A stretch of 64,000 bases of DNA, taken from NCBI GenBank assembly GCA_038064975.1, contig JBBTRX010000002.1:64880-128879 (forward strand). The letters run 5' to 3'. Origin of the DNA: Patescibacteria group bacterium. GTDB lineage: Bacteria > Patescibacteriota > Minisyncoccia > UBA6257 > 1-14-0-10-40-38. Made by a program: the position numbers and the translations under genes. Under the pieces are notes generated by a model. That model was not told the origin of the DNA, searched no databases, and saw only the letters and a list, made by a program, of their open reading frames with translations. This document shows positions 3,125-47,098 of the stretch, in pieces (positions within the stretch are counted from its first letter, which is position 1; each line of letters starts with the position of its first letter).

Positions 3125-4594
3125 TTAAAGCCGTTGGAAAAGAGGCTCTCCTTTTTTGATAGTGAGCGGATGCACTTTGGGAGTGCGAAGCTGTGCGATT
3201 GTAAGACCAAATCTACTTACTATATTTTCGGCAGTTTCCGGCAAAAAGATATGTAAGATATTGGCAATATTCAAAATAAGAGAAGCAAGGTCGGCAAGAA
3301 TAATTTTCTGGTCGTCTCCCGATTTCTCCCATGGTTTTGTTTCGTTTACATACTTATCCCCCAGTGCAACGAGCTGCCATACTGCCTCAATCGCGAGATG
3401 GAATGCGTACTTTTCTAATGCCTCGCGAACTGCTTCCTTTACACGCTTCACTTCAGGCTCAAAGACACCAGTCGCAATCGTAATGTCCGTGAGGTGTGCA
3501 GACTCTCCCAGTGTCGTCACGCGTTGTACAAGATTACCCACACCGTTTGCAAGATCAGCGTTATAGATTTCTTTGAATCGTGCCTCGCTCCAATCCCCGT
3601 CTTCATACGCATGGATTCCGCGCAAAAGAAAATATCGCACAGCATCCGTGCCATACTTTTCTGTAAGATCAATTGGGTTTACCGTATTGCCGAGCGACTT
3701 AGAAATTTTCTGTCCCTCGTGCGTAATGAATCCGTGAATAAAAATTTGTTGCGACGGTGGGAGTTTTGCCGAGAGTAACATTGCCTGCCACATTGCGGAT
3801 TGCTGGCGCAGATTATCTTTTCCCGCAACCTGCACTCCGGGCCAGAACTGTTTAAACTTTGAAGTATCATCGGGCCAGCCGAGAGCTGACACGTAATTTA
3901 CAAGCGCATCAAACCACACATACATCACATGATCTTCGTCCCCCGGCACGGGTACGCCCCATGGCATTTTTGATTTCAACCGTGAAACACTGAAATCATC
4001 CAATCCGCGCTCAACGAATTTTTTGATTTCATTCAAGCGAAAATCCGGCACCACAAAATCCGGATGTTTCGCATACAACTCTAACAACGGTTTTTCATAT
4101 TTAGAAAACCGGAAAAAGTAATTCTCTTCTTCAATAAATTCAATATCCTGATTGGGATGGATAGCGCAGCGGTTATTCACGAGCTCAGATTCTGTCTTTT
4201 CCAATTCACACCCCACGCAATATTTAGTGGTATATATTTTTTTATAAATATCTCCGCTCTTCTCACATCGTTTCCAAAATTCTTGCGCGGCAGCAACATG
4301 GTGCGGATCAGTCGTGCGGATAAAATTGGTATAGCTTACGTTAAGCGCGTTCTTGAGCAAATCAAATTTCGCGGCATATTCATTAACATATACCTGCGGA
4401 TCTTTTTTCTCTTCAAGCGCTTTCCGATAGATTTTGAGCCCATGTTCGTCCGTACCGGTATTAAAAAATATTTCCTCGCCCCGAGACTGGTGCAGGCGCG
4501 CGATAACGTCCGCTTGGACAAGCTCAAGAGCGAATCCGATGTGCGGATCCGCATTCACGTACGGAAGTGTAGTTGTAATATAGAACTTCTCCAT
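3125..4594 (-). CDS. metG: methionine--tRNA ligase (MetRS, no C-terminal tRNA-binding domain)
   Basis: Class I HIGH motif (PHIGF), KISKS motif and the MetRS zinc knuckle CVGC..C..H. The N-terminus YITTTLPYVNADPHIGF is typical of MetRS. Confidence 0.9.
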   Translation of the reverse strand: MEKFYITTTLPYVNADPHIGFALELVQADVIARLHQSRGEEIFFNTGTDEHGLKIYRKALEEKKDPQVYVNEYAAKFDLLKNALNVSYTNFIRTTDPHHVAAAQEFWKRCEKSGDIYKKIYTTKYCVGCELEKTESELVNNRCAIHPNQDIEFIEEENYFFRFSKYEKPLLELYAKHPDFVVPDFRLNEIKKFVERGLDDFSVSRLKSKMPWGVPVPGDEDHVMYVWFDALVNYVSALGWPDDTSKFKQFWPGVQVAGKDNLRQQSAMWQAMLLSAKLPPSQQIFIHGFITHEGQKISKSLGNTVNPIDLTEKYGTDAVRYFLLRGIHAYEDGDWSEARFKEIYNADLANGVGNLVQRVTTLGESAHLTDITIATGVFEPEVKRVKEAVREALEKYAFHLAIEAVWQLVALGDKYVNETKPWEKSGDDQKIILADLASLILNIANILHIFLPETAENIVSRFGLTIAQLRTPKVHPLTIKKGEPLFQRL

Positions 4595-5599: not shown

Positions 5600-7078
5600 T
5601 TACTTAACAAAATATTTCTTCTTGATCTCCTCATCGATGCGATGCTGCGCAGCGGATGCACTTTCTTTTGCCTTTCGTGCAAAATCCTCAAGCTCCTTAT
5701 CGGTCATCTTGCCCAATTCCTGAATTCTCTTTTCCAACACCTTTTTAGTATTGTATTTTGGATCTTCCAAAACTTCTTCCAAAAGCACCGCAAGAATTTT
5801 TCCAATCCGCGGTCCAGGAGACATCTTAAGGACGCGCATCACGTCTTCTCCATTCGCCTTCAACATCTTCGGGCTTACTGGATCTTTCTGTACTTTCTCA
5901 ATCATCGCGCGCAGATAGCGTAATCGATACGGTTGAGCCTTGGGCACACCGGATCCGATGCGATCCGCTTCGCGAAGTTTTAAAAGCGCATCTACATTGT
6001 CTTTACCAACACGCGCAATAAGCCGGCGTACACCCGCAAGAGTTACCGCTTCTGGATCGTATACAAACATATGCTCGCGCACTAAGAGAGCTACAGTCTC
6101 CGTAAGCGTTTTTGAGAAACGGAGGCGATCCATAATAGTTGCCGTCATCCGTTCGCCAACAACTTGATGTCCGTAAAAGGTAGAGTCCGGTCCATCCCCT
6201 TTTTTTGAACGCGGCTTTCCAACGTCATGAAAAAGTGACGCAAGGCGGATATGGAGCGGAAACCGTTCTGCTACCGCGTATTCCAATGATCGAAGATTAT
6301 GTTCAAAGACAGTATAGATATGATGCTTGTTTTGCGTTACGCTGATCCCCTCTTCAATTTCAGGAGCGATATGAATGAGAAGTTTGTGTGCGAGAAGCAT
6401 ACGCACACCCTCTGCAGCACGGTCGGTCAGCATGAGTTTTGTAAACTCATCGCGTATACGTTCCTTGGAAACATATGCCAAAAGCCCGCTCTGTTTTGTA
6501 ATCGCTTGTGCGGTCTTTTCTTCGATCGCAAATCCAAGCTGCGCACTAAACCGAATCGCCCGCAAAAGACGAAGAGCGTCTTCTTCAAATCGCTGCTCAG
6601 CCTTTCCTACGGCGCGAATAATTTTTTTCTTTAAATCTTCCTGTCCGTGATAAGGATCAACAATCAACTCTCTACTTGCATCGGTTATTTTTAATGCCAT
6701 CGCATTCACTGTAAAATCTCTGCGCGAGAGATCTTCTTCTATTGTAGAAGCGAAAGTTACCTCGTCTGGGTGACGCTTGTCACTATATTTCCCTTCAATA
6801 CGAAATGTCGTAACTTCAATTACTTTTAGTTTTGGATCTTCCGAATCCGTTTTTACTCCCACGGTGCCAAATTCATTTTCATATACTGAATCTGAGAATA
6901 ACTTTTGAATTTCTTCTGGCTTTGCATTCGTTGCGACGTCCCAGTCACTCGGACCTTCCGCAGGAGAATTCTCCATCATAATGTCCCGAACGCATCCGCC
7001 CACAAGATACGCATCAAAACCGCCCTCGTTTAAGCGTTCGGCGATCATTTTTACCTCTTTTGGGATGCGGCTTTTCAT
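5600..7078 (-). CDS. cca: CCA-adding tRNA nucleotidyltransferase with HD domain
   Basis: Pol-beta-like nucleotidyltransferase N-terminus (GGCVRD) plus a C-terminal HD domain (HDVGK). Confidence 0.8.
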   Translation of the reverse strand: MKSRIPKEVKMIAERLNEGGFDAYLVGGCVRDIMMENSPAEGPSDWDVATNAKPEEIQKLFSDSVYENEFGTVGVKTDSEDPKLKVIEVTTFRIEGKYSDKRHPDEVTFASTIEEDLSRRDFTVNAMALKITDASRELIVDPYHGQEDLKKKIIRAVGKAEQRFEEDALRLLRAIRFSAQLGFAIEEKTAQAITKQSGLLAYVSKERIRDEFTKLMLTDRAAEGVRMLLAHKLLIHIAPEIEEGISVTQNKHHIYTVFEHNLRSLEYAVAERFPLHIRLASLFHDVGKPRSKKGDGPDSTFYGHQVVGERMTATIMDRLRFSKTLTETVALLVREHMFVYDPEAVTLAGVRRLIARVGKDNVDALLKLREADRIGSGVPKAQPYRLRYLRAMIEKVQKDPVSPKMLKANGEDVMRVLKMSPGPRIGKILAVLLEEVLEDPKYNTKKVLEKRIQELGKMTDKELEDFARKAKESASAAQHRIDEEIKKKYFVK

Positions 7079-8418: not shown

Positions 8419-11181
8419 TTACCACGCCTCCACCATTAAAAATGATTTCTGTTTTTCCCCAGCGAAGAGTTTTTGATATACCGCCTCCGTAACAAAAGGC
8501 ATAAAGGGATGGAGAAGTTTTATACATCCCAAGAAAATATCTTTTAGCATAGCAAGCGCCGCAGCTTTTTCCTGACTGTTTCCATTCTGGAGAGCAGGCT
8601 TTACTTGTTCAATAACAATGTCCGCAAACGTGTGCCATATATAGTGATAGCTTTCATTGGCCGCCTCGTGTAGTTCAAATGCCTCAATTTTCTCCGTAAC
8701 GAGTTTCTTAATATCGTTAAATCCGTCGTAATACGCTTGATATTCCTTCGGCATCTTTACTGACCGAGAAAGAGTTGGATCGTCATACATAGAAATAAAA
8801 CGTGCGATATTCCAAATCTTGGTCGCAAAGTTTCGATATCCGCGGATTTTGTCTTCAGAAAGTTTTATATCGTTTCCCGGCGCGGCACCCACAATAAGCG
8901 AAAGACGCGTCGCATCAGCTCCGTATTTATCCGCCATCTCTAATGGATCAATGCCATTTCCAAGTGATTTAGACATCTTTCTTCCCTTTTCATCACGCAC
9001 AAGCCCATGGAGATATACCGTCTTAAAGGGAACATCACCAATAAGAAATCCGGTCATAAGAATCATGCGCGCAATCCAGAAAAATAAAATATCGTATCCT
9101 GTTTCCAAAACACTTGTCGGATGAAATCCTTTTAAGTCTGCCGTTTTTTCGGGCCATCCGAGAGTTGAGAGCGTCCACAGCCCGGAAGAGAACCACGTGT
9201 CCAACGTGTCGGAGTCTTGGAGAAAAAGATGGTTACCGCATTTTTTACATTCCTCTAAAATATCGAATTGAATCGTTTCAGTGTTTTTTAGTGCAGATCC
9301 TGACAACGCCTGTTCTGGTGTCCAATTGTTAATCCTCTTCATAAGCATGCGGATTGTTCCGCCATGTGTCATGATGACAACGTTTTTGTGAGCATGCTTC
9401 TTTTTGTGACGCTCAAATGCCTCCACTACCCGATCTTCGAGTTGTTTATAGCTTTCGTCGTTTTCAATATTTATGTCATATCCAAACCTATCCTGATATT
9501 TCGCGATCATTTCTTCTTTTAGCATTCCCTCATATCCCCCATGATTTCTTTCGCGAAAACCTTTTTCATATATAATTTCTGCTCCGGTTACTTCGTGTAT
9601 TATTTCTGCAGTTTCTTTCGCGCGTTTAAGATCCGAACTTATAATGAGATCAATATTTTGATTTTTCAGCGCATGAGCCATTTCCCGCGCCTGTTCTCTT
9701 CCTTTTTCATTTAAGGAAGTATCCAGCCAGCCCTGTTGTCTTCCTTCTTTATTAAAATCAGTTTCTCCATGCCGAGCAAAAAACCATTTCCCCTTTCTTA
9801 GGGGGTTAATTTTTTCGTCTTTACAGCTAGTGCAGTACCACGCCGGAATCCGATGCCCATACCAAAGTTGGCGCGAGATGCACCAGTCGCGAAGATTTTC
9901 TATCCAATGGAAATAGGTCTTATCAAAATGTTCGGGAATGATTTTAATCTGCCCGCTCTTCACTACCTGAAGCATCATTTCTTTAAGCGTCACCATCTCC
10001 CCTTTCTTAATGCCTTGCAGCTTATCCGTTTTCGCTTCGAATTTTTTATTCACGTCCACAAACCACTGACGCATAATTTGCGGCTCAATAATTCCCCCAC
10101 CCCGTGTTGAAACAGTAACGCGATGCGCGTATTCCTCATCAACTTTCACGAGCAATTTTTTTTCTTTTAATTTCTCAACAATAGCAGGACGGGCTTTCGT
10201 GATATGCATTCCCGCAAATTCCCCGGCAATGGGGAGCAGTTTCCCTTTAAGATCAATAATTTGTTCTTTATCCAGGTTATGTCGTTCCGCGATTTCAAAA
10301 TCCATCGCATCGTGCCAGGGCGTAATCGTCATCACGCCAGTTCCGAATTCCGGATCAGCGGCCTCATCTTTAATAATCGTCGCCGTTATTCTTCCGTTGA
10401 TCCATTCAACTTCAAGTGTTTCGCCGTGTTTATATTTCGCATACCGTTCATCGTTCGGATGCATAACAACGTATTTATCTCCGAATTTCGTCTCCGGCCG
10501 GGCAGTACCGATAACAAAGGGGCCGTACTGTATATAATAGAAGACGCTTTTTTCATCCTTCCATTCCACCTCGTCATCAGAAACCGTGGTTTGCAGTTTC
10601 GGATCCCAATTCACGATTCTATCACCGCGATAGATGAGTCCGGCCTCGTGCATTTCTTTAAACGCAGTTTTGACCGCAAGACTTCGCGATTCATCAAGAG
10701 TAAACGCTTCGCGCGACCAATCTAAAGACGCTCCTAATCGTTTCATCTGATGCACGATAGTGTCATGACTTGCGCTCGCAAATTCTTCCACCTGTTTTAA
10801 AAATGTCTCGCGCCCCAGATCATGACGGGTTTTCTTTTCTTTTTTATAGAGCTCCTTCTCCACTTTTTCCTGCGTTGCAATTGCGGCATGGTCCGTACCA
10901 GGAATCCACAAGGTCTTAGCCCCACTCATACGCCGGTAACGGATAATAATGTCTTCTACCGCAATCATAGCTGCGTGTCCCATATGGAGCGTCCCCGTTA
11001 CGTTCGGCGGAGGAAGCACAATAGAGAAAGCTTCTTTATGCTTCCCCGGAAGTTTGTCCGGATTAAAAAAACCGGATTCTTCCCAGTTCCGATAAATAGC
11101 ATCTTCATGCGCTTTCGGGTCGTATGTTTTCTCGAATTCGGAATTCATATATATACTGCTTACTTTGTGTTCCTTCATCAT
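8419..11181 (-). CDS. valS: valine--tRNA ligase carrying an inserted histidine-phosphatase (PGAM-like) domain
   Basis: PPPNVTGTLHMGHA and KMSKSLGN motifs identify ValRS. About 190 aa are inserted between HRIPAWY and DTLDTWFSSGLW. The insert contains a split zinc knuckle (CTSC...CKKC), an RHGETDF motif and a later THGG motif. Confidence 0.9.
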   Translation of the reverse strand: MMKEHKVSSIYMNSEFEKTYDPKAHEDAIYRNWEESGFFNPDKLPGKHKEAFSIVLPPPNVTGTLHMGHAAMIAVEDIIIRYRRMSGAKTLWIPGTDHAAIATQEKVEKELYKKEKKTRHDLGRETFLKQVEEFASASHDTIVHQMKRLGASLDWSREAFTLDESRSLAVKTAFKEMHEAGLIYRGDRIVNWDPKLQTTVSDDEVEWKDEKSVFYYIQYGPFVIGTARPETKFGDKYVVMHPNDERYAKYKHGETLEVEWINGRITATIIKDEAADPEFGTGVMTITPWHDAMDFEIAERHNLDKEQIIDLKGKLLPIAGEFAGMHITKARPAIVEKLKEKKLLVKVDEEYAHRVTVSTRGGGIIEPQIMRQWFVDVNKKFEAKTDKLQGIKKGEMVTLKEMMLQVVKSGQIKIIPEHFDKTYFHWIENLRDWCISRQLWYGHRIPAWYCTSCKDEKINPLRKGKWFFARHGETDFNKEGRQQGWLDTSLNEKGREQAREMAHALKNQNIDLIISSDLKRAKETAEIIHEVTGAEIIYEKGFRERNHGGYEGMLKEEMIAKYQDRFGYDINIENDESYKQLEDRVVEAFERHKKKHAHKNVVIMTHGGTIRMLMKRINNWTPEQALSGSALKNTETIQFDILEECKKCGNHLFLQDSDTLDTWFSSGLWTLSTLGWPEKTADLKGFHPTSVLETGYDILFFWIARMILMTGFLIGDVPFKTVYLHGLVRDEKGRKMSKSLGNGIDPLEMADKYGADATRLSLIVGAAPGNDIKLSEDKIRGYRNFATKIWNIARFISMYDDPTLSRSVKMPKEYQAYYDGFNDIKKLVTEKIEAFELHEAANESYHYIWHTFADIVIEQVKPALQNGNSQEKAAALAMLKDIFLGCIKLLHPFMPFVTEAVYQKLFAGEKQKSFLMVEAW

Positions 11182-14291: not shown

Positions 14292-14585
14292 TTGACAAGA
14301 AATATGAGCCAAAAACGCATTTGGGGCATTCTAAGCCTCGTTATCCTTATTGCCGCTATTGCCCTAGCGGTGTATTGGAAGCAAAACCAGCTTATCCGGG
14401 AGAAACGATCAGAGATTAATGAAGAGCAGAAATTGATTGAAAGTTTGAGCAAATCATTAGATGAAAGCTCAATTTCCGGAATTGATATTCCGACCACAAA
14501 TCCGTTAGGAGAAGTTACGTCTGAAACAAATCCATTGGAAAATACCAATCCTTTTGATGAGCAGTATGAAAACCCGTTTCAGTAA
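14292..14585 (+). CDS. small membrane-anchored protein
   Basis: 97 aa with a single N-terminal TM helix. Confidence 0.35.
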   Translation: MTRNMSQKRIWGILSLVILIAAIALAVYWKQNQLIREKRSEINEEQKLIESLSKSLDESSISGIDIPTTNPLGEVTSETNPLENTNPFDEQYENPFQ

Positions 14586-16050
14586 GCTAGTTCTTATTTT
14601 CGGTATTTTGATTTTAAACATAGGTTTCGCATCTGCGGCATCCGCGCAACAAACGCCATCCGTTTCATTCCCCATCGCTGAACTCGGTGATTGTTCTGAT
14701 ACTTCAGAATGCAAAATATATTGCAACGCGGCTGGACATCAATTAGCATGCACCGCTTTTGCCGAACGAAATCATCTAAAGGTAGTATCTCCCGAGCATG
14801 AAGCAAAACTTTATGCCGTCGCCGCTGACGGCGGCCCCAATGGAACGTGCGGGTTTGAAGAAAATCCGATCAAAGCATGTGGGTCATTTTGTGCTTCGGC
14901 AGATAATCTGCCCACATGTGTGGACTATGGCGAAAAGCACGGACTCCTCACAGGGGAACGTTTGAACGAAGCACGCAAAGTACGAGACGCAGTGCGAAGC
15001 GGTATTCCCCTTCCAAAGGGATGCACCGATGCCACGTCTTGCGAAAAATTGTGCAAGCGCCCAGAAAATCTTGAAGTGATGCGCTCATGTTTCTCATTCG
15101 CAGAATCAGCGGGCATATTACCTACAAACATCACGCGAGAAAAGGCGGAAAAAATGTTTGATTTAATCCAGAAAGGATTCGCATTTTTTAAATCCGTAAA
15201 AGATTTTGATCGCTGCGAAGATCCTAAAGACGCAGACACACTTGAACGCTGTATCGCATTTGGAATAGAAAGCGGCGTTATCACTGAAACCCAAGCAGAA
15301 GCAATTAAAAAATCTGGAGGTAAAAGGCCTGGCGCGTGTGCCAATAAACAAGAATGCGAACGCTACTGCAACAGTGCGGAGCATGAGGACGAATGCTATC
15401 GCTTCGCGATAGAACACAACTTACTCTCCCACGAAGACATGCAAAAACTTAATGAAGGAACAACGAGAATTCGCGAAGGATTACAACAAGCTTCTCCCGA
15501 AGCGTCCGCGTGTCTTCGCGCCGCAATCGGCTCTGAAAAATTTGATAATATTGTGGCGGGAATAGAAATTCCTCCACGCGAACTCGTGGAAAAGATGAAG
15601 CTTTGTCTCACAACAGGAACTATAGAAGAATATAAACGGCCGCCGCTTCCTGCGGCAATAGAGAAATGTTTAGAAGAGCGCGGGACGTTGGAACAATTCA
15701 AAACACATATGGGACCGTTTACCGAAACCATGCGCCGCATGATGGAATCATGCTCTACCGTACGGACGCAAACCAACGACACTCCATTCAATGACCAAGG
15801 AATCCGACAACAAACCATACCGCAAGAAAAAGAACTTATAATACCTAAAGAATTCAACGAAGATTCGACGCTCTATGATATTTATGAAGCTGATACTAAC
15901 GAAGAATTATTACAACTTAAATTTAAATGCAGCTCAGTAGGAGGACTTTGGAAAAATGACACCTGTCTCGTGAAAAAAAATCCTCAATCATTACTTCTCC
16001 CCCCTTCCCTACAAGAATTTTTGGGGAATCTGTTCTCCATTCTGAAATAA
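14554..16050 (+). CDS. secreted cysteine-rich repeat protein
   Basis: Signal peptide (FASAASAQQ), then at least four repeats of about 45 aa with spacing C-x5-6-C-x3-C...C-x2-FA (for example CSDTSECKIYCNAAGHQLACTAFAE). Confidence 0.6.
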   Translation: MMSSMKTRFSKLVLIFGILILNIGFASAASAQQTPSVSFPIAELGDCSDTSECKIYCNAAGHQLACTAFAERNHLKVVSPEHEAKLYAVAADGGPNGTCGFEENPIKACGSFCASADNLPTCVDYGEKHGLLTGERLNEARKVRDAVRSGIPLPKGCTDATSCEKLCKRPENLEVMRSCFSFAESAGILPTNITREKAEKMFDLIQKGFAFFKSVKDFDRCEDPKDADTLERCIAFGIESGVITETQAEAIKKSGGKRPGACANKQECERYCNSAEHEDECYRFAIEHNLLSHEDMQKLNEGTTRIREGLQQASPEASACLRAAIGSEKFDNIVAGIEIPPRELVEKMKLCLTTGTIEEYKRPPLPAAIEKCLEERGTLEQFKTHMGPFTETMRRMMESCSTVRTQTNDTPFNDQGIRQQTIPQEKELIIPKEFNEDSTLYDIYEADTNEELLQLKFKCSSVGGLWKNDTCLVKKNPQSLLLPPSLQEFLGNLFSILK

Positions 16051-26659: not shown

Positions 26660-27598
26660 TTAGCGTTGGTATGAGTGGTAGGTGTTGAGCAGTTTCTTTT
26701 CGGTCTGATTCAGTTCCAAGCCATTATCTTTGTAGAATTGGGCGATATAGAGGAAGAGACTCATCATCCCCTGGATTTTTGCCGACGAGACTTCGCCTTT
26801 TCTCATTGCCAGATTGAGAGCTCCCCGCACTCTCCGAAAATATGCGCGAGGGACGAAGATTCTACCATCTTCTGCAATCCCGATACCTGTTACGACAACA
26901 GGTCTTTTTGTAAGATCCACGCAATCAGATTTCCAGTGATTAATTATGAATCCGGCTTGGTCCGCAAGTATTCGTATCTTGCGACGCGTACTCGCCACAA
27001 TGGGATTTGGTGAAGAGAAGGTCAGGTCATCAATATAGCGCGTATACGTAATCCCAAATTCTTCACATAGATCACCAATATCTCCATCCAAGAGCGATCC
27101 CACCGAGAGATTGAAAAGATCTTGTGAGGCAGGACCGCCCGTGACCAATCCATGCTCCTTGTGAAAAAAATATTGAATGAGAAAAGCGACCAGCTCTTCT
27201 CTTTGCGACGCAAGCTTTTCATCAAGCGCAATCAACGTGTCGGCGACATGCGAGGGGAGAACGCTCCGATATGCATGGCGGAAATCAACAAGATAGAAAA
27301 ACCTATTCTCTCGATGTATGAGTGCATTATTGAGAGGAGATGATTTCGGCAATGCAGCAGTTGCATAGCGCAGAAATTGAGACCGTATCTGCTCATTGAC
27401 GTGCATAGGACTGCGCAAATGACCCAAAAATTCTCTTTGCAAATGAAGCATGCTGTTATTGGGCGCAAAAACGATACGACGCTTCGTGTGTCCGCTTAAA
27501 GGATTTTCATCGCGGATAGGAAACATCGTAAAACGAGGAGATTCCCCGTACTCGCGCTCCAATTGAGCCACGAGACTTTTCAGATTTTCAACGAGCAT
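26660..27598 (-). CDS. reverse transcriptase, retron-type (start trimmed to MLVENL; good SD AAGGAGG)
   Basis: RT motif 1/2 (FPIR..RRIVFAPNNSMLHLQ), motif A (LVDFRHAYRSV), motif B (LVTGGPASQDLFNL), motif C (YIDD), and a downstream VVVTGIGI that matches the retron-characteristic VTG motif. At 312 aa it has no maturase or endonuclease domain. Confidence 0.75.
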   Translation of the reverse strand: MLVENLKSLVAQLEREYGESPRFTMFPIRDENPLSGHTKRRIVFAPNNSMLHLQREFLGHLRSPMHVNEQIRSQFLRYATAALPKSSPLNNALIHRENRFFYLVDFRHAYRSVLPSHVADTLIALDEKLASQREELVAFLIQYFFHKEHGLVTGGPASQDLFNLSVGSLLDGDIGDLCEEFGITYTRYIDDLTFSSPNPIVASTRRKIRILADQAGFIINHWKSDCVDLTKRPVVVTGIGIAEDGRIFVPRAYFRRVRGALNLAMRKGEVSSAKIQGMMSLFLYIAQFYKDNGLELNQTEKKLLNTYHSYQR

Positions 27599-27655
27599 GG
27601 AAACCTCCTTGTTTTGTAGTTCTGGGGTTGGGTTTTGACTATAGTTCCTGAACTG

Positions 27656-27690
27656 AAGAAATGCAAATAAAAAAGGACCCCACAGAGATG
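27656..27690 (-). terminator. terminator-like hairpin plus T-tract between the candidate ncRNA and the RT start
   Basis: On the minus strand: GCCCCACAtctcTGTGGGGtcc followed by TTTTTTATTTGCATT. The T-tract is identical to the one after the RT gene. Confidence 0.5.
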
Positions 27691-27704
27691 TGGGGCGATC
27701 AGCG

Positions 27705-27960
27705 GTATCCGAAGGTGAGTTTTGCGACAGAAAAGTGAAATGTGCTGATCTAGTGGCCGGTCGTCCGCACTCCGCCCGCGCGCGCGGCCCGGAAAGGCTG
27801 GTTGTAAGGAAAACCCGTTGCCGGATTCTCATTCCGCTACGTGAGTAGCGAAGGGAACAGGAAAAGAAGTAGAGAGATTAACGAACTCTCCATCCGAGAG
27901 CTTTTGGTCAAGTGCTCCAGACTCGCTTTTCCATCTCCTCACCTTCGGATCGTTCCTGAC
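27705..27960 (-). ncRNA. candidate retron-like structured ncRNA (msr/msd-like) upstream of the RT
   Basis: A 13-bp terminal inverted repeat ATCCGAAGGTGAG/CTCACCTTCGGAT brackets about 215 nt. AGCGAG follows the 5' repeat. The region has GC-rich hairpins (CCGCGCGCGCGG, CGCTACtcacGTAGCG, CTCTCggatgGAGAG) and is driven by its own promoter. The function is unproven. Confidence 0.35.
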
Positions 27961-32812: not shown

Positions 32813-34342
32813 CTATTTTGCGTATTCTACCGAGCGAAGTTCCCGAATAACGTTTACTTTGATTTCTCCGGGATATTTCATTTCTGACTGGATTTTCGCC
32901 GCTATATTCTTAGCCATTTGAAGGGCCGCGAAGTCATCTACCTTCTCTGGTACAACAAATACGCGGATTTCCCGACCTGCGGAAAGCGCGTACGAATTTT
33001 TAACACCGTCAAAGGTGTTTACAATGCGTTCCAGGTCTTCTAAGCGCTTTAGATAGTTCTCTACCGTATCGCGTCGTGCGCCTGGGCGTGCCGCAGACAA
33101 GGCATCCGCCGCAGTAACAATGAAGGACTCGGGTGTCGCGAACGGATACTCCTCGTGGTGCGATTCCATCGCGTGAATGACCGCTTGGTCAACGCCGTAT
33201 TTTTTGAGTATCTTCCTTCCTAAATCAACATGCGTTCCTTCAACCTCGTGACTGATCGCTTTGCCGATATCGTGAAGAAGCGCGCCTTTCTTAGCCACTT
33301 CAACGTTAGCGCCAAGCTCGCCTGCAATAATTGCGGAAATATATGCCATTTCTACAGAGTGGATCAGTACGTTTTGCCCGTAACTTGTCCGGAAATGGAG
33401 CCGTCCTAAAAGTTGTGTAATCTCTTTCGGAAGATCGTAAATACCAAGCTCATGAGCAGACTCTTCTCCAATTTGGCTCATCCGTTTAGTAAGCTCGGAC
33501 TCCGCTTCTTTTACTTTCTCTTCTATTTTTGCGGGATGGATTCTACCGTCTTTAATGAGTTTTTCCAAAGCCGCTTTAGCGATCTCTCTCCGCAGAGGAT
33601 CAAACGATGAAAGGATGATCGCCTCCGGAGTCTCATCTACGATTACTTCTACGCCAGTTAAACGCTCTAAGGTGCGGATGTTCCTCCCCTCACGGCCAAT
33701 AATCTTGCCTTTCAAATCTTCGTTAGGAAGCGTAAGTACTGAAGTCGTAATATCCGCAACATGAGAGCGAGCATACCGATGAAGCGCAGTCGTGATGACA
33801 TCAACAGCGCGCTTTTCAAGCTCAACCTCACGATCCTTTGCGAGCCGCTGAATCGTGCGAATAAGATCATCCCGATGCGTTTCTTCAGTTTTTTGGAAGA
33901 GTTCCTTCTTTGCCTCTTCTGCGCTAAGTCCTGCTACGCGTGCCAGTTCGTGCACTGTTTTTTCCCGCGTTGCCACAGCTTCATCACGAATCCCAGCAAT
34001 CTTATCTAATTCCGCCTTTAGCGCCTCGTCCCTCTGCCGCGCTTCTTTCCCTTGGCGTTCAATATCCTCTTCTTTCCTAATAAGCCGCTCTTCAGCGCGC
34101 TGGATCTGCTGTAATCTGTTCTTTTCCTGCTCTTTTGCTTCTTCTAAGATAGCGACTGCCTTGTCTTTCGCATCAACAAGGATTGATTTCGCTTCTGTCT
34201 TCGCCTCTTCAGTTTGAAGTTTGACCCGCTCCTCAAGAGAGCTTGCCTTCTGACCTGCGATAAATCTGCGTCCGACATAGCCCACGCCAATTCCCAGCGC
34301 GAGCGTGATGCCCGCGATCAATAATTCTGTCATAGTAGTCAA
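32813..34342 (-). CDS. rny: ribonuclease Y
   Basis: N-terminal TM helix, coiled coil, KH domain and HD domain (HSVEMAYISAII..LLHDIGKA). Confidence 0.85.
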   Translation of the reverse strand: MTTMTELLIAGITLALGIGVGYVGRRFIAGQKASSLEERVKLQTEEAKTEAKSILVDAKDKAVAILEEAKEQEKNRLQQIQRAEERLIRKEEDIERQGKEARQRDEALKAELDKIAGIRDEAVATREKTVHELARVAGLSAEEAKKELFQKTEETHRDDLIRTIQRLAKDREVELEKRAVDVITTALHRYARSHVADITTSVLTLPNEDLKGKIIGREGRNIRTLERLTGVEVIVDETPEAIILSSFDPLRREIAKAALEKLIKDGRIHPAKIEEKVKEAESELTKRMSQIGEESAHELGIYDLPKEITQLLGRLHFRTSYGQNVLIHSVEMAYISAIIAGELGANVEVAKKGALLHDIGKAISHEVEGTHVDLGRKILKKYGVDQAVIHAMESHHEEYPFATPESFIVTAADALSAARPGARRDTVENYLKRLEDLERIVNTFDGVKNSYALSAGREIRVFVVPEKVDDFAALQMAKNIAAKIQSEMKYPGEIKVNVIRELRSVEYAK

Positions 34343-34483: not shown

Positions 34484-36040
34484 ATGAGGCGCAAATTAGT
34501 TCTTGTTATTCTTGACGGATGGGGAATCGGAAACAATGACGGGTCCAATCCCCTCTATGTCTCCCAACCGCCCAATATTATGGCGATAAAAAGGAGCTAT
34601 CTTGCGGGAGCACTCCAATCTTCGGGCATTGCCGTAGGGCTTCCCTGGGAAGAAGAAGGTAACAGCGAAGTCGGACACCTTACGATCGGTGCAGGCAAAG
34701 TCATTTACCAACACTTTCCCCGCATCACAATGAATATCCAGAGCGGAGACTTTTTCAAAAACAAGGCATTTGTGGGAGCATGTGGCCATGTAAAACAGTA
34801 TGGAAGCGCGCTCCATATTGCAGGATCACTTACCCAAGGGAATGTGCACGCTTCTTTAGAGCACGTACGTGCGCTTATCCGCCTTGCGAAAGAGCAAGGT
34901 GTAAGTAAGGTATATTTTCATTTCTTTACCGACGGCAAAGACAGCCCGCCGAAATCCGCACCCGCACTCTTAGGCGAAGTACGAACATATGCCAAAGAAC
35001 AAGGAGTGGGAGAGGTTGCGAGTATTGCCGGAAGATTTTATGCCTTAGACCGAGACGAACACTGGGATAGGACAGAGAAGGCATATCGCGTAATGACGGG
35101 CGAAGGACTAAAGAGCGTAAGTGCCGAGGCACGCATTCAAGAAGCGTACGCCAAAGGATTAGGAGACGAATTTATAGATCCAGCATCGGTTCAAGACCCA
35201 CCGCACACAATTGCAGAAAATGATGCACTTATTTTCTTTGATTTCCGCGAAGATAGTATTCGGCAAATTGCGAGCGCGTTCGGCGTTCAGAATTTTTCAA
35301 AATTTCCCGTGCGCCCGATACCGAATCTGTATCTCGCGACCATGACGCAGTACACCGAAAAGATACAGGCGCATATTGCCTTTCCCGTGGAGTCGGTAGA
35401 AAATCCGTTAGGCAAAGTACTCTCGGACAATGGACTTATCCAACTCCGCATCGCAGAGACGGAAAAATACGCTCACGTTACTTTTTTCTTCAACGCATAC
35501 CGTGAACAGCCGTTTCCGAATGAATATCGCGTCCTCATCCCCTCTCGGAATGTTTCCCGCGCGGATCTCCACCCAGACATGATGGCGAACGAAATCGGAA
35601 CGAGAATTCTTGAGTCCATCGAAGAGGGTGGGTTTGATGTTATCATCGCGAATTTCGCGAACCCTGATGCAACGGCACATACGGGAAATTTTGAAGCAGC
35701 GCTCTCCGCGATCAAAACCGTTGACGAAGAGATTGGACGCATCGCGAAAGCATGTAAAGAACAGAATGCAATTCTCATGGTTACCTCCGATCATGGAAAC
35801 GTTGAACGCATGACAAACCCGCTTACTGGTGCAATAGAAACGAAACATGACGCAAATATTGTGCCTATATATATTGTAGGCAACGGATTTGAGCGGCATA
35901 AGAGCGACATGGAAGCCGCGATGATAGAGAGCGAGGCGGTTGGCATTCTTTCCGATGTTGCACCGACCATATTGGAACTCCTGGAAATCCCTAAGCCCGC
36001 CGAGATGACTGGCGAAAGTCTGCTAAAAGTGCTTCGATAG
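34484..36040 (+). CDS. gpmI: 2,3-bisphosphoglycerate-independent phosphoglycerate mutase
   Basis: LVILDGWGIG N-terminus and the metal-binding motifs of iPGM. Confidence 0.85.
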   Translation: MRRKLVLVILDGWGIGNNDGSNPLYVSQPPNIMAIKRSYLAGALQSSGIAVGLPWEEEGNSEVGHLTIGAGKVIYQHFPRITMNIQSGDFFKNKAFVGACGHVKQYGSALHIAGSLTQGNVHASLEHVRALIRLAKEQGVSKVYFHFFTDGKDSPPKSAPALLGEVRTYAKEQGVGEVASIAGRFYALDRDEHWDRTEKAYRVMTGEGLKSVSAEARIQEAYAKGLGDEFIDPASVQDPPHTIAENDALIFFDFREDSIRQIASAFGVQNFSKFPVRPIPNLYLATMTQYTEKIQAHIAFPVESVENPLGKVLSDNGLIQLRIAETEKYAHVTFFFNAYREQPFPNEYRVLIPSRNVSRADLHPDMMANEIGTRILESIEEGGFDVIIANFANPDATAHTGNFEAALSAIKTVDEEIGRIAKACKEQNAILMVTSDHGNVERMTNPLTGAIETKHDANIVPIYIVGNGFERHKSDMEAAMIESEAVGILSDVAPTILELLEIPKPAEMTGESLLKVLR

Positions 36041-38535: not shown

Positions 38536-40254
38536 ATGACACAACACAAACGTACGCGTCCCGTACAGAAAAAGGACGAAATTAAAAAGGATGAAAACGC
38601 AGTTCGCTTTATTCCTTTAGGCGGATTGGAAGAAGTTGGCAGAAATTGCTCACTCTTAGAATACAAGGACGAGATTATCGTTATCGACGTCGGTATTCAA
38701 TTTCCCGAAGAAGAAACTCCGGGTATTGATTACATCATTCCAAACATAACTTATTTGGAACCTCGAAAGCAGAATATCAGAGGGATTATCTTCACCCATG
38801 GCCATTACGACCACATCCATGCACTCCCATATTTGCTTGAGAAATTAGGGAATCCAGTCATCTATACAGCTCCATTCACAAAGGCATTAATTGAAAAGCG
38901 CCTCGTAGAATTTCCAAATCTTCCTAAGGCAAAGTTCATCATCATAAAAAACGGTGATCGCTTTAAGATTTCCGAAAATTTTGAAGCAGAATTCTTTGAT
39001 ATCAGTCACACCATCTACGATGCAATGGGAATGATAATTCATAGTCCTGCAGGAAAGCTTGTCCATTTTGGAGACTTTCGTCTTGATATAGATCGCAATG
39101 GAAAGCCAGTTAACTTAGAAACATTTGAGCGCTTGGGAAAAATGGGAGATATTCACACCATTTTCCTTGATAGCACAAACGCAACCAAGCTTGGTCACGC
39201 TATTTCCGAAGAATTGATTACTGAGAATCTTGAGGAATTACTCAAAAAAGCAAAGGGCCGGCTGATTATAGCAACATTCGCTTCCCTCTTAACACGCCTT
39301 AAGGCAATGGTTGCAATCGCAGAAAGAATAGGACGTAAGGTTGCTCTCAATGGACGCTCCATGAAAGACAATTTTGCCATTGCTCAATCTTTGGGATACA
39401 TAAAACCAAATCAGGGAACGATCATCACCGTAGAAGAGGTAAATAAATATCCGGACGAAAAGATTATGATTCTTACGACCGGCGGGCAGGGAGAACCGAA
39501 CGCAGGGCTTATGCGCATGGTAAACGGCGAGCACAGGCACGTAAGCCTTAAGACGAAGGATACCGTCGTCTTCTCTTCCTCCGTCGTTCCGGGTAATGAA
39601 CGGAGCGTACAAGCATTGCAAGACAATATTTCCCGCAAAGTTGATGAACTCTACAACTATTCATTTCTAGACATTCATGCTGGAGGACATTGTCACTCAG
39701 AAGACTTGAAACTCGTTATGAAGTTGGTAAAGCCAAAATACATCATTCCAATTCACGGCTATTACTTCATGCGCAAAAGCGTAATGAAGCTTGCCGAAGA
39801 AATTGGACTTAAACGGGAGCAAGTAGTTGTAATGGACAACGGAGAAGTAGCTCAGATTACGAAAGATAACTTCACAATTACTTCTGAAACTGTGCCGGCA
39901 TCTTACGTTATGGTGGACGGCCTTGGCGTCGGAGACGTTGAAGAAGTAGTGCTCCGCGATCGCAGAATGCTTTCCGCGGAAGGCATGATCGTTATTATCA
40001 TGACGCTGGAGCGCAAAACCGGGCGCATCGTAAAAAATCCGGATATCATTTCACGGGGATTTATTCTCATTAAAGACAATAAGCACCTCTTAGATGAAAT
40101 CCGAAAACGCCTGCGCAATCTTGTAGAGAGAATCCCCCGCCAAGAAGCGGAACCAGATTACGTAAAATCTCTTATTCGCGATCAGATTGGGCAATTTGTA
40201 TACTCAAAGACAAAACGCCGCCCAATGATTCTGCCGGTACTGATTGAAATCTAG
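38536..40254 (+). CDS. rnj: ribonuclease J
   Basis: Metallo-beta-lactamase HxHxDH motif (HGHYDHIHA), a beta-CASP domain and a C-terminal domain. Confidence 0.85.
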   Translation: MTQHKRTRPVQKKDEIKKDENAVRFIPLGGLEEVGRNCSLLEYKDEIIVIDVGIQFPEEETPGIDYIIPNITYLEPRKQNIRGIIFTHGHYDHIHALPYLLEKLGNPVIYTAPFTKALIEKRLVEFPNLPKAKFIIIKNGDRFKISENFEAEFFDISHTIYDAMGMIIHSPAGKLVHFGDFRLDIDRNGKPVNLETFERLGKMGDIHTIFLDSTNATKLGHAISEELITENLEELLKKAKGRLIIATFASLLTRLKAMVAIAERIGRKVALNGRSMKDNFAIAQSLGYIKPNQGTIITVEEVNKYPDEKIMILTTGGQGEPNAGLMRMVNGEHRHVSLKTKDTVVFSSSVVPGNERSVQALQDNISRKVDELYNYSFLDIHAGGHCHSEDLKLVMKLVKPKYIIPIHGYYFMRKSVMKLAEEIGLKREQVVVMDNGEVAQITKDNFTITSETVPASYVMVDGLGVGDVEEVVLRDRRMLSAEGMIVIIMTLERKTGRIVKNPDIISRGFILIKDNKHLLDEIRKRLRNLVERIPRQEAEPDYVKSLIRDQIGQFVYSKTKRRPMILPVLIEI

Positions 40255-43200: not shown

Positions 43201-43734
43201 CGGAATAATCTTATGCCCTTCGTAGAGTAGTTTTTTCTTCCAGACTTCTTTAAATATCCAAAATAAAGATTCAATATATGATGAATCCGAGGTTACATAC
43301 GCGTTCTCCCTATCCAACCAAAATCCAATGCGTTCGGTAAAGTTTTCCCACTCCGTGCGATATCTCCAAACGGAAGCGCGCGCTTTTTCATTAAACTGCG
43401 CGATGCCATACCGTTCTATATCCTGTTTGTTCCGAAGTCCCAGTTCTTTTTCCACTTCAATTTCAACCGGAAGCCCATGAGTGTCCCATCCTGCTCTCCG
43501 TAAAATAGAATGCCCGCGCATCGTTTTGTAGCGCAAAATAATATCCTTAAACGCACGGACAAGAATATGATGCGTGCCGGGACGGCCATTTGCAGTCGGA
43601 GGGCCTTCAAAAAAACGGAATGGCTTCCCCCGCTTTCGTGCAGCGGTCGTTTTTGGAAAGATTTGATTTTCTTTCCAGAATTTCAGAACTTGCTCCTCAA
43701 GTTCCGGTAAATTGAATTTATCTTTTTCAAGCAT
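40291..43734 (-). CDS. ileS: isoleucine--tRNA ligase carrying an inserted histidine-phosphatase (PGAM-like) domain
   Basis: PTANGRPGTHH and KMSKSKGN motifs identify IleRS. About 230 aa are inserted between WGTPLPIW and DVWFDSG. The insert contains RHGEAEHN, IDLIISSPFARAKETAE, SHGD, and a CPDC zinc knuckle. Confidence 0.9.
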   Translation of the reverse strand: MLEKDKFNLPELEEQVLKFWKENQIFPKTTAARKRGKPFRFFEGPPTANGRPGTHHILVRAFKDIILRYKTMRGHSILRRAGWDTHGLPVEIEVEKELGLRNKQDIERYGIAQFNEKARASVWRYRTEWENFTERIGFWLDRENAYVTSDSSYIESLFWIFKEVWKKKLLYEGHKIIPWCTRCGTALSSHELAQGYKEVTDTSVYVKFKLKPGQKIGNWKTTDNTYILSWTTTPWTLPGNVALAVGKNISYVVRSQNGEYAVVAHDSSLKEVLGEVVVTVKGKDLIELEYEPLFDIPSLRSEKSHRVYAADFVTTEDGTGVVHTAVMYGEDDYELGVKIGLPQKHTVTEEGKFTDEVKDLAGRFVKAKLTETTIIEYLQSKNLLLKTEQYTHEYPHCWRCGTALIYYARNSWFIRMSELKSQLIAENARVNWIPSHVREGRFGEWLKELKDWAISRNRYWGTPLPIWKGEICVHTFVAGSFEDLEKHALPQAEFFLIRHGEAEHNTKNQMAGDDERPSLLTAKGKTQAKKAGADLKKKKIDLIISSPFARAKETAEIVSEATGAEIVYDERIREINVGVFNRAPVDDYHAFFNSFEERFTKTPEGGETLIDLARRVTSFMKDVRAQYAGKRIAVVSHGDPLWVLSAILDGMNLTAEIKEAEYILPGKWISRTVMNLPYNETGTIDPHRPFIDEIVLQCPDCGKTMRRIPDVADVWFDSGAMPFASWHYPFEHKGMVDGKKQFPADYITEAVDQTRGWFYTLLAVSTLLGKKEPYKNVISLGHILDKHGAKMSKSKGNVIDPWQLIGTHGVDAVRWYFFTLNDPGEPKRFNEDDLKTVFRKVFLITYNSFAFSKMYEHEKHNPLPALDQWILARLNEVGLTVSKKLDVYDVYSAAKALETFLDDLSRWYIRRSRKNVSPKTLQTVLVTLSKYMAPFAPFFSEGLYQAVATKKEKTGSHSVHIALWPKITMSVSDKKMIQAMEEVRRLANLALAEREKLGIKIRQPLSTLSIVTKILSVKDSALLAILADEVNVKHIVFSKDQGADTVLDATITPELRAEGLMRELSRMIQKLRQDAGYDIKDTVMITIAASVLLQEQIEKNKDTLLRMVGAKEMDFAAASWMETRPFDAKQETKLDQETIVVGIRRAK

Positions 43735-46746: not shown

Positions 46747-47088
46747 GGGGATGCCGGGCTTCGATAAGGCATATTCTCTACAGATGGCATGCCGAGCCGC
46801 AATATCTCGTTAACCTGTTGCAAACTATAACTGCAAACCACAAAGTTGCAGCACCAGCATTTGCCTTTGCGTAAGTGCGTGGTGTCCCCTTCCATTAATG
46901 GAAGGGCATCGGTCCTGACGCTTCATAGGGATTAACCGGTGTTATATCTGATGCTCAAGATGCGCGAAGATTAGGATTCGTCGGCACGCATTCGAAAACC
47001 AAATGAATTCTTTGTTTCTTTTGAAACTAAGCATGTAGAAGTTTGTTCTGAACATCCTTAGATGTGGGTTCAACTCCCACCATCTCCA
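46747..47088 (+). ncRNA. ssrA: transfer-messenger RNA (tmRNA, ssrA)
   Basis: 5' GGGGATG pairs with 3' CATCTCC and includes a G3:U pair. There is a tRNA-like T-arm (GTGGGTTCAACTCCCAC). An internal tag ORF, with resume codon GCA, encodes ANHKVAAPAFAFA followed by a stop. The gene lies next to smpB. Confidence 0.8.
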
Positions 47089-47098
47089 CAAATAAAAA

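Follow-up and report, generated by a model that had tools for sequence, protein, structure and literature searches.

Aminoacyl-tRNA synthetases are among the most conserved enzymes. The valyl-tRNA synthetase (ValRS) of Thermus thermophilus (1GAX/1IVS) combines the HIGH and KMSKS motifs with a CP1 editing domain, an anticodon domain and a C-terminal coiled coil (PF10458), an arm that is typical of bacterial ValRS without being defining. Its two CxxC pairs lie about 17 residues apart. CP3, the zinc knuckle to which they belong, is catalogued as a zinc-finger insertion module of 25-77 amino acids in a table that gives no function (PMC10810186), and the literature searched offers nothing on its function past the label 'zinc finger'.

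Small branch-1 phosphatases from the superfamily of histidine phosphatases, such as the metal-independent phosphoserine phosphatase iPSP1/PspA of Hydrogenobacter (4IJ5/4IJ6), Bacillus PhoE (1H2E), Rv2419c GpgP and the alpha-ribazole phosphatase CobC, are compact proteins of about 180 amino acids with the catalytic set RHG...R...E...H. They are free-standing, usually dimeric and have defined substrates, and members of the branch have been described as broad phosphatases acting on ATP, DNA ends and 3-PGA (PMC2737285). Two protein families provide partial parallels. NF040702 ('IleRS, N-acetyltransferase domain-containing') is a class Ia synthetase that hosts an unrelated catalytic domain, and NF005567, the bifunctional RNase H/acid phosphatase of the Rv2228c type, has a CobC-like histidine phosphatase fused to an RNA-processing enzyme. 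In both families the domains are joined end to end, and no insertion within the Rossmann fold is known from them.

The window analysed here, a stretch of 64,000 nucleotides from an uncultured Patescibacteria group bacterium, encodes a ValRS that has the HIGH, KMSKS, CP1 editing and anticodon regions in common with the Thermus enzyme but is without the coiled coil, and whose CxxC pairs are 191 residues apart, separated by a complete enzyme domain. This insert is 27-31% identical to the small branch-1 phosphatases and has the same catalytic set and the same compact size; unlike them, it is nested, with its termini clamped by a putative zinc site. As in NF040702, a class Ia synthetase is the host, but the protein falls outside both fusion families (157 bits against a cut-off of 1999 for NF040702, and 84 against 326 for NF005567). 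In the open literature searched, we found no description of a phosphatase nested in the catalytic core of ValRS or of isoleucyl-tRNA synthetase (IleRS).

The ValRS and its nested domain

The open reading frame (Table 1) is given at its maximal length. A public protein of 909 amino acids (P0001) is 100% identical to the window ValRS, which implies a start at Met12 (nt 11148), likely the true one; residues 1-12 have a pLDDT below 50 in the AF2 model. The product exceeds the cut-offs of the ValRS models NF004349 (874.2 bits against 704) and TIGR00422 (819.9 against 612.1) and scores far under those of the IleRS, LeuRS and MetRS models. The whole-protein AF2 model depicts a single well-packed protein (pLDDT 91.2, pTM 0.87), for which Foldseek returns 1GAX as the top match (E 9.6e-57, 34% identity). 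In an alignment of 81 ValRS homologues, H66, G68, H69, K735, S737 and K738 are invariant, as are the editing-site residues T226, R228, P229, E230, T231, K232, T287, P288, H290 and D294, which lie in the CP1 motifs GTARPETKFGD (225-235) and TPWHDAMD (287-294). The 64-kb window holds no second ValRS. With motifs, editing site and predicted fold all intact, the protein is a genuine ValRS and probably the cell's housekeeping one. A Pfam search returns no PF10458 match in it, and the coiled coil is also missing from most close Patescibacteria ValRS (717-760 aa); some insert-bearing ValRS have it and some do not, and insert-less ones without it occur as well.

The original prediction, made from the translation, placed a histidine phosphatase of about 190 amino acids between HRIPAWY (443-449) and DTLDTWFSS (658-666), enclosed by a split zinc knuckle, and each of these elements is borne out. 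PF00300 matches the segment with 167.4 bits against a gathering threshold of 21.7, covering profile positions 2-181 of 194, and is flanked on both sides by halves of PF00133. The segment from WY to QD measures 208 amino acids, against 20-50 in insert-less relatives, a net insertion of about 185-190. C450/C453 are aligned with C417/C420 of 1GAX, and C645/C648 with its C438/C441, and in both halves of the knuckle the cysteines are kept in 104 of the 107 insert-bearing ValRS. The domain sits in CP3, a hairpin at the surface that connects strand beta4 of the Rossmann fold (HRIPAWY) with the DTLDTWFSS helix. Since four cysteines clamp its N- and C-termini together, the domain would leave the synthetase fold undisturbed.

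All the motifs quoted as a full signature are present in the translation: RHGETDF (470-476), SSDLKRAKETAE (515-526) and THGG (605-608). N477 is also listed among the catalytic residues. As for conservation of the catalytic His and Arg positions, R470, H471, R520 and H606 occur in 107 of 107 aligned insert-bearing ValRS, and E544 in 105. Profile searches with Pfam and NCBIfam assign the insert to the histidine phosphatase superfamily, and the model agrees: pLDDT is 93-98 across the insert in the whole-protein model and 93.2 in a model of the insert alone, which superposes on 4IJ6 with a TM score of 0.92 (rmsd 1.6 A) and on PhoE (1H2E) with 0.88. Judged by profiles and predicted fold, the insert is firmly placed in branch 1. 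Its scores stay under the curated cut-offs for PspA (NF045917, 103.2 against 350) and CobC (TIGR03162, 111.9 against 162.9), and also below that of the NCBIfam GpmB model, so that no substrate can be transferred from these families.

Table 1. Features of valS and ileS, numbered from the first letter of the window
Feature	Residues	Nucleotides	Strand	Remarks
valS, valyl-tRNA synthetase ORF	920 (maximal)	8419..11181	-	stop codon 8419-8421
ValRS N-terminal part	1-449	9835..11181	-	Rossmann first half, CP1 editing domain, CP2, WCISRQ..HRIPAWY strand
HMGH motif	66-69	10975-10986	-	
CP3 zinc knuckle, first half (CTSC)	450-453	9823..9834	-	C450/C453
His_Phos_1 domain (PF00300) of ValRS	467-641	9259..9783	-	Pfam E 3.8e-49
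Catalytic R470-H471-G472	470-472	9766-9774	-	
Catalytic R520	520	9622-9624	-	
Catalytic E544	544	9550-9552	-	
Catalytic H606	606	9364-9366	-	
CP3 zinc knuckle, second half (CKKC)	645-648	9238..9249	-	C645/C648
ValRS C-terminal part	655-920	8422..9219	-	DTLDTWFSS helix, Rossmann second half, KMSKS, anticodon-binding helical domain (PF08264)
KMSKS motif	735-739	8965-8979	-	
ileS, archaeal/eukaryote-type isoleucyl-tRNA synthetase	1147 aa	40291..43734	-	PF00133, PF00300, PF08264, DUF5915
His_Phos_1 domain of IleRS	495-654	41773..42252	-	E 5.4e-37

The same domain in IleRS

The original prediction was right in its domain assignment and overlooked a second case in the same window, where ileS, 30 kb from valS, encodes the same domain at the same site. 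The insert lies between WGTPLPIW and DVADVWFDSG, a position homologous to that in ValRS, and has the RHG, R, E and H residues. IleRS inserts (P0315 from Harrisonbacteria and P0372 from Wolfebacteria GW2011, for example) belong to the same family as those of ValRS and occupy the same beta4/CP3 site. In contrast to the patchy ValRS inserts, they are found in every homologue sampled, each of the 120 best IleRS homologues having PF00300, and tandem or triple inserts occur in some. Catalytic residues are kept in 116-123 of the 123 IleRS inserts, and both copies of tandem inserts retain the set. IleRS inserts are the more basic, with a pI of 9.0, against a median pI of 6.6 and a net charge of -2 for the slightly acidic ValRS inserts, where charge is only a weak argument as regards RNA binding. 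MetRS and ArgRS, also encoded within the window, have no such phosphatase domain according to Pfam.

A common origin of the two kinds of insert is unsupported. They are 34-39% identical, no closer to each other than to free-living phosphatases, and score 95-101 bits between classes against 91-155 to free-standing proteins. A domain of 180 amino acids is too short to settle the matter. Taken together, IleRS and ValRS are predicted to hold a second intact catalytic centre inside the Rossmann fold across a large bacterial radiation, an architecture masked by generic annotation such as 'class I tRNA ligase family protein'.

Distribution and exchange of the module

The original prediction implied that the architecture is rare, and this does not hold. 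Among GTDB species representatives, at least 65 Patescibacteria genomes encode an insert-bearing ValRS, a figure that corresponds to 65 of 67 Patescibacteria loci in the scan of genomes. The insert is also present in some 50 of the best 120 ValRS homologues, and all compared sequences are derived from metagenomes. The trait bears on the annotation of hundreds of metagenome-assembled genomes and may serve as a lineage marker for Paceibacteria-type Patescibacteria. Within the neighbour-joining tree of ValRS the insert is patchy, and many orthologues at the same synteny are without it. Insert-bearing genes, the window valS among them, and insert-less genes have the order TsaD-ValRS-PrsW-Hsp20 in common, which makes them orthologues and rules out paralogy. 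Paralogy on one contig had been suggested by the 32,902-bp longest contig given for both P0030 and P0077, a chance agreement in length between different samples.

Pairwise comparisons point to exchange of the module between ValRS bodies. For instance, the flanks of the valS DNA of loci L027 and L032 are mostly more than 90% identical, with one 90-nt window at 0.82, and identity is 47-69% (about 55%) exactly across the insert. Proteins P0049 and L051 have inserts that are 94% identical in bodies that are about 50% identical; among IleRS, inserts that far exceed their bodies in similarity were not seen. Such sequence comparisons indicate that the module is exchanged as a cassette. Single gain followed by vertical descent is ruled out by the patchy tree, the weak correlation of insert and body identity (Pearson 0.39) and the sharp DNA breakpoints. 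Steady fast evolution of the insert is likewise ruled out, as its dN is bimodal, either equal to that of the body or about 0.35-0.5. For six co-inherited pairs, omega of the insert is 0.03-0.06, equal to that of the body, a value that shows purifying selection on the co-inherited insert to be as strong as on the body.

Among the 150 best phmmer matches, 20 multi-domain proteins were scanned with Pfam: class Ia synthetases (ValRS or IleRS) account for 18 of them, and another is a choline-kinase-like fusion. In some synthetases the copies number two to four and are spread over several sites that surround the catalytic domain, namely CP2, CP3, after DTWFSS and after KMSKS. At the same sites, other ValRS have ASCH/PUA-like, putatively RNA-binding domains whose Pfam matches are weak (ASCH E 0.01, DUF3850 8e-5), and a firm ASCH assignment was dropped for that reason. 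Free-standing genes with the arrangement CxxC-phosphatase-CxxC also occur (P0121, P0170, P0177, L061 and L064). One free-standing copy lies 3 bp upstream of an insert-bearing valS in an apparent operon, and one of the two free-standing relatives whose neighbourhood was examined overlaps smpB, a tRNA-related gene.

Possible roles of the nested phosphatase

The reading that we prefer, and to which we give about even chances, is that the window ValRS is a bifunctional enzyme with an autonomous, active phosphomonoesterase module, the synthetase being its carrier. A compact domain of the PhoE, metal-independent phosphoserine-phosphatase or CobC type, seated at the tip of the CP3 zinc knuckle, would act through a phospho-His471 intermediate with Glu544 as the acid, and would form a second active site independent of any co-adapted interface with the synthetase. 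Rather than acting as allosteric partners, the class Ia synthetases would then be carriers, essential and highly expressed, that bring the activity to the translation apparatus. The ValRS copy may be a secondary, exchangeable copy of a function carried by IleRS in every homologue sampled. Our guess at the substrate, one of low confidence, is a phosphomonoester of small size, for instance phosphoserine, a sugar phosphate or a nucleoside monophosphate; it would be neither that of the glycolytic mutase reaction nor, in our view, a tRNA end. Against tight coupling in cis stand the swaps between bodies about 50% identical, the free-standing genes, the absence from many orthologues and the slight acidity. 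If the module is autonomous, it would be a natural case of essential enzymes carrying unrelated activities in reduced genomes, and CP3 would be a permissive, recombination-prone docking site useful for engineering synthetase domain insertions. The specific and repeated link with two synthetases counts against the carrier reading, since it makes neutral hitch-hiking unlikely and favours a functional link to aminoacylation. The free-standing relative that overlaps smpB counts against it as well.

That functional link is the core of a reading that we consider doubtful but worth serious attention, in which the phosphatase works in cis, coupled to aminoacylation, and clears phosphorylated species at the synthetic site. 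The original prediction went in this direction, naming tRNA 2',3'-phosphate ends, nucleotides or a regulatory role. Targets could be a 2'- or 3'-phosphate or a toxin-added pyrophosphate on the tRNA CCA end, removed before charging, or a nucleotide product or inhibitor, for example AMP, PPi or pAp, on its way out of the cleft at the ATP/KMSKS side. The concentration of the domain in synthetases (18 of the 20 scanned multi-domain proteins) and its presence in all 120 best IleRS homologues fit such a role, as do the multiple copies ringing the catalytic domain, the free-standing copies in an apparent operon with valS and overlapping smpB, and the putative RNA-binding domains, weakly matched by Pfam, at the same ValRS sites. 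CP3, following beta4, would be expected from class I topology to emerge at the active-site face of the Rossmann fold, and branch-1 enzymes can act on nucleic-acid ends and ATP (PMC2737285). However, the absence of the domain from many orthologous ValRS implies that it is not required for charging tRNA(Val), and cassettes that pass between such divergent bodies speak against co-adaptation in geometry. The slight acidity of the ValRS inserts sets them apart from typical RNA-binding surfaces. For the repair of 3' ends the window already has a CCA-adding enzyme that includes an HD phosphohydrolase domain (5600..7078), and its MetRS and ArgRS are without the nested phosphatase. Were coupling real, quality control of tRNA or nucleotides, or resistance to toxins, would be seen to include a new step.

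A more specialised proposal, which we hold to be improbable, makes the domain a repair or immunity device in the two branched-chain synthetases, taking off phosphate or pyrophosphate added by toxins to the CCA end of the tRNA or to the synthetase's own KMSKS loop. Cassette exchange, copy expansion and free-standing copies would then reflect ongoing conflict in episymbiotic bacteria. If true, it would add self-protecting synthetases as a new class, and the domain would be one whose spread proceeds through nesting in conserved zinc knuckles.

A non-catalytic role is distinctly unlikely. The insert might serve as an appendage with a structural or ligand-sensing task, for example regulating ValRS through a bound phospho-metabolite or helping to hold tRNA where the coiled coil is missing. 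The lack of a PF10458 arm in the window ValRS is consistent with the latter, and a pTM as high as 0.87 points to an insert held in a fixed orientation. Pseudoenzymes, however, normally lose some catalytic residues, and here the constellation is invariant across 107 ValRS and 123 IleRS inserts apart from the few exceptions given above. Insert-bearing ValRS may have the coiled coil or not, it is missing from insert-less ones too, and cassette exchange argues against an allosteric interface.

Slightly less likely still is a guardian protein phosphatase that would remove phosphate placed on the synthetase by HipA/HipT-like toxin kinases, for example from serines of the KMSKS loop, thus giving IleRS and ValRS immunity, with cassette swapping as the trace of an arms race. 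HipA and HipT target the KMSKS-type loop of class I synthetases, and PGAM5, Sts-1 and SixA are branch-1 protein phosphatases, precedents that speak for this role. Patchiness, allele replacement in near-identical genes and copy-number expansion form a conflict-like signature, and by fold topology CP3, which follows beta4, should lie next to the KMSKS loop, which follows beta5. Membership in a defence system is nevertheless rejected, as no PADLOC defence model matches, and the loci examined showed no kinase gene. Small-molecule phosphatases are the closest matches among solved structures, and the IleRS, in none of which the insert is far more similar than the body, look like carriers of a core function rather than a conflict function.

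That the insert is the cell's cofactor-dependent phosphoglycerate mutase (dPGM) of glycolysis, fused to ValRS, is very improbable. The Pfam family includes dPGM and there are weak NCBIfam dPGM matches, but the score stays under the cut-off of TIGR01258 (70.1 against 81.7) and far under those of the equivalog dPGM models (NF010713, 70 against 305), the domain is of the short form of about 180 amino acids, in which the insertion and the tail of dPGM are missing, alignments with dPGM structures in the PDB span only about residues 10-108 of the insert, and the window encodes a cofactor-independent mutase (iPGM, 34484..36040).

An artefact, whether a chimera of the assembly, what is left of an intein or mobile element, or a pseudogene that has been disrupted, is a negligible prospect, suggested only by the metagenomic origin of all data: no intein, Hint or LAGLIDADG family matches the ValRS in Pfam at E <= 0.01, the junctions are a zinc knuckle without splice-junction residues, the insert has the complete fold of a metabolic-type enzyme and is under purifying selection, the AF2 model is of one well-packed protein, in-frame homologues number more than 100 and were obtained in many studies, and the identical ValRS protein occurs on three independently assembled contigs and is therefore not an assembly artefact.

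A histidine phosphatase in the CP3 module of ValRS

The window's valyl-tRNA synthetase (ValRS) exceeds the curated cut-offs of two NCBIfam valine-tRNA ligase equivalogs, NF004349 (874 against 704) and TIGR00422 (820 against 612), and its editing motifs are intact. Pfam finds two halves of PF00133, a class I catalytic domain, on either side of PF00300 (His_Phos_1, residues 467-641 of the maximal ORF, E = 3.8e-49), with the anticodon domain PF08264 also present. The C-terminal coiled-coil tRNA-binding arm, PF10458, is missing here and in most close relatives, and is kept by a subset of 1059-1086 aa. The motifs that the original prediction had read as a PGAM-like phosphatase within ValRS all lie in the ORF where it had placed them, and the Pfam match supports the assignment to histidine phosphatases. 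An identical public protein of 909 aa (P0001), from a Patescibacteria MAG and labelled 'class I tRNA ligase family protein', has its sequence on three contigs that were assembled independently and measure up to 381,697 bp. Given its length, the true start is probably Met12 (nt 11148); residues 1-12 are the sole stretch of the ValRS model with pLDDT below 50. The nested domain is real and in frame, far beyond chance.

Local alignment pairs SRQLWYGHRIPAWYCTSC with residues 403-420 of Thermus thermophilus ValRS (1GAX) and ECKKCGNHLFLQDSDTLDTWFSS with residues 437 onward, which identifies the four Cys around the insert (C450/C453 and C645/C648) as those of the CP3 zinc knuckle (C417, C420, C438 and C441 in Thermus) and bears out the predicted split knuckle. 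The CxxC pairs are 191 residues apart, as against about 17 in Thermus. CP3 is a cysteine-rich zinc finger found in class Ia enzymes; a catalogue gives its length as 25-77 aa and assigns it no function (PMC10810186; see also PMC7191050). In Patescibacteria ValRS that lack the insert, 20-50 residues, with or without cysteines, occupy this position.

An AlphaFold2 model of the whole protein, built with an 81-sequence alignment, has a pLDDT of 91.2 (93-98 in the insert) and a pTM of 0.87. Its best PDB match is 1GAX (E = 9.6e-57), and the top matches are all ordinary ValRS, IleRS or LeuRS, none with a region resembling the insert. Modelled alone (pLDDT 93.2), the insert superposes on 4IJ6, a metal-independent phosphoserine phosphatase from Hydrogenobacter, with a TM-score of 0.92 and an rmsd of 1.6 A. 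Further matches are PhoE, mycobacterial glucosyl-3-phosphoglycerate phosphatase and CobC-type enzymes. The PspA, CobC, GpmB and dPGM models all score the insert under their curated cut-offs. It thus belongs with the small PhoE-like phosphatases, and no substrate can be assigned to it from these matches.

Seven residues, including the catalytic His and Arg whose conservation had been in question, are invariant in 107 non-identical insert-bearing ValRS (R470, H471, R520, H606, S516, T524 and R584); E544 is kept in 105, and N477 and the four Cys in 104 each. Compared at the codon level, pairs of close relatives show a bimodal pattern. In six pairs from one clade, the insert has a dN of 0.06-0.09 and an omega of 0.03-0.06, matching the ValRS body; in other pairs, whose bodies are just as similar (dN 0.01-0.09), the insert dN is 0.34-0.5. 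The insert is thus either passed on with the gene, and then as strongly constrained by purifying selection as the synthetase, or has been replaced by another allele. By sequence criteria, the gene encodes an intact ValRS with an intact phosphatase under selection.

Association with IleRS and other genes of the window

A tblastn search with parts of ValRS returned no second ValRS in the 64-kb window, and located a second class Ia enzyme, IleRS, predicted to be of the archaeal/eukaryote type because of its C-terminal DUF5915. It too contains a His_Phos_1 domain, one that the original prediction had not flagged, between WGTPLPIW and DVADVWFDSG, the homologous CP3 site. PF00300 is found in all 120 of the best IleRS homologues (50-54% identical), among them genomes deposited in 2015 and Harrisonbacteria, whose ValRS lack the domain, and the catalytic residues are kept in 116-123 of 123 IleRS inserts. 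The IleRS inserts are no nearer to those of ValRS than to free-living phosphatases. No His_Phos domain occurs in the window's MetRS or ArgRS.

Searched exhaustively with phmmer against 1.84 billion representatives, the insert proves to be specifically associated with these enzymes: when 20 multi-domain proteins among the best 150 matches were scanned with Pfam, 18 were ValRS or IleRS, the others being a choline-kinase-like fusion and a free-standing protein that has a tandem pair of phosphatase domains. Some ValRS and IleRS (proteins P0164, P0228, P0195, P0173 and P0186) carry two to four phosphatase domains, placed in tandem in CP3, before WCISRQ (CP2 region), after the DxWFxS helix or after KMSKS, with the catalytic residues kept in every copy.

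Translation and RNA genes cluster in the window, where a PolX-like protein is also encoded. Two ORFs of 390-498 aa (14554..16050 and 26660..27832) have no Pfam match.

Features of the window and of related loci (P, database proteins; L, genomic loci of relatives)
Feature	Location	Strand	Remark
Short MetRS	3125..4594	-	489 aa
CCA-adding enzyme with HD phosphohydrolase domain	5600..7078	-	1.3 kb downstream of valS
valS ORF	8419..11181	-	920 aa
RNase Y	32813..34342	-	
Cofactor-independent phosphoglycerate mutase (iPGM)	34484..36040	+	iPGM_N and Metalloenzyme
RNase J	38536..40254	+	
IleRS	40291..43734	-	1147 aa
His_Phos_1 of IleRS	41773..42252	-	aa 495-654, E = 5.4e-37
ArgRS	43748..45460	-	directly upstream of IleRS
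tmRNA	46747..47091	+	
PolX-like protein	53095..54867	-	pol-beta thumb and PHP
Free-standing module P0121	L005 8001-8708		ends 3 bp upstream of insert-bearing valS
Free-standing module	L061 4923-5600		
Free-standing insert relative P0124	L006 6001-6570, L007 3057-3626		Peregrinibacteria
KTYRLRDHGFKIGDKV domain	L019, L042, L055		inside CP3, before phosphatase
KTYRLRDHGFKIGDKV domain	L068, L073		after DTWFSS
KTYRLRDHGFKIGDKV domain	P0093, P0108		CP3, no phosphatase

Distribution and exchange of the insert

Of the 120 best ValRS homologues, about 50 have PF00300 (Colwell-, Kaiser-, Lipton- and Moraniibacteria, Paceibacterota). The rest (Harrison-, Wildermuth-, Yanofsky- and Sungbacteria, among others) lack it, despite bodies 65-74% identical to that of the window ValRS. 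When the insert alignment was run against one genome per GTDB species, it gave 439 relatives; 67 of the best 80 are Patescibacteria loci, and in 65 of these the domain lies nested between ValRS halves. The matches outside Patescibacteria are free-standing. Some NCBI organism labels on the scanned MAGs seem unreliable. The same TsaD-ValRS-PrsW-Hsp20 neighbourhood surrounds the window gene, two insert-bearing relatives (L001 and L005) and an insert-less one (L002-L004), so the two forms are orthologous genes of a single locus rather than paralogues.

By neighbour-joining on the ValRS body, genes with the insert split into at least eight groups, some of them sister to insert-less genes (for instance, P0006 and P0120, at 86% body identity), and insert identity correlates poorly with body identity (Pearson 0.39). 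Two pairs are decisive. Loci L027 and L032 are mostly more than 90% identical in DNA on both sides (one 90-nt window at 0.82), and only 47-69% identical across exactly the insert (L027 1150-1700). Conversely, the inserts of P0049 and L051 are 94% identical, in bodies that share about 50% identity. These patterns identify CP3 as an apparent recombination cassette. The insert is likewise replaced as a cassette in L049, L021 and L045 relative to their close relatives. The alleles of CP3 include a short hairpin, a zinc knuckle on its own, a knuckle with phosphatase and, in some genes, an extra ASCH/PUA-like domain with weak Pfam support. Free-standing genes with both CxxC halves and a '...CG.DLYE' tail (P0121, P0170, P0177, L061 and L064) could be donors or products of the exchange.

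A further nested domain of about 130-150 aa, with the motif KTYRLRDHGFKIGDKV, occurs in Patescibacteria ValRS; its matches are weak (ASCH, E = 0.01; DUF3850, 8e-5) and point to a PUA-like fold that may bind RNA. P0077 has a different insert of 83 aa at the same CP3 site.

Function of the nested phosphatase

The reading we prefer, at roughly even odds, is that the domain would be an autonomous, catalytically active phosphomonoesterase borne on essential class Ia synthetases by reduced genomes, the ValRS copy being secondary and exchangeable. The original prediction had suggested an accessory phosphatase, perhaps of tRNA 2',3'-phosphate ends or nucleotides, or a regulatory role. Action in cis, coupled to aminoacylation, is favoured by the domain's strikingly specific and recurrent link with two sister synthetases, by its presence in each of the IleRS homologues sampled and by the clustering of phosphatase copies around the catalytic domain. 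Of the free-standing copies, one apparently shares an operon with valS and another overlaps smpB. Moreover, both ATP and the ends of nucleic acids can be substrates of branch-1 phosphatases (PMC2737285). Nevertheless, cassettes are swapped between very different bodies, free-standing forms exist, many orthologous ValRS do without the domain and the ValRS inserts are acidic to neutral (pI 6.6), all of which favour autonomy and leave coupling rather unlikely. A tRNA 3'-end repair activity, the CCA-adding enzyme, is already encoded near valS, and the window's tRNA genes of non-class II species are 72-75 nt long, which suggests that CCA may not be encoded in them.

A guardian protein phosphatase and a non-catalytic role are both improbable. 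Excluded or unlikely are a glycolytic mutase, since the window encodes an iPGM and the dPGM models score below their cut-offs, and likewise a pseudoenzyme, an intein or an assembly artefact.

The component families are known, and the architecture has been public since at least 2015 under generic names; full-text literature searches turned up no account of such a phosphatase in either ValRS or IleRS. The main interest is that the trait is widespread in the lineage and present in two synthetases of one genome, and that the insert is an apparently exchangeable cassette. As for the free-standing relatives, P0124 overlaps the start of smpB, which encodes the trans-translation factor, by one base, suggesting that the two are co-transcribed.
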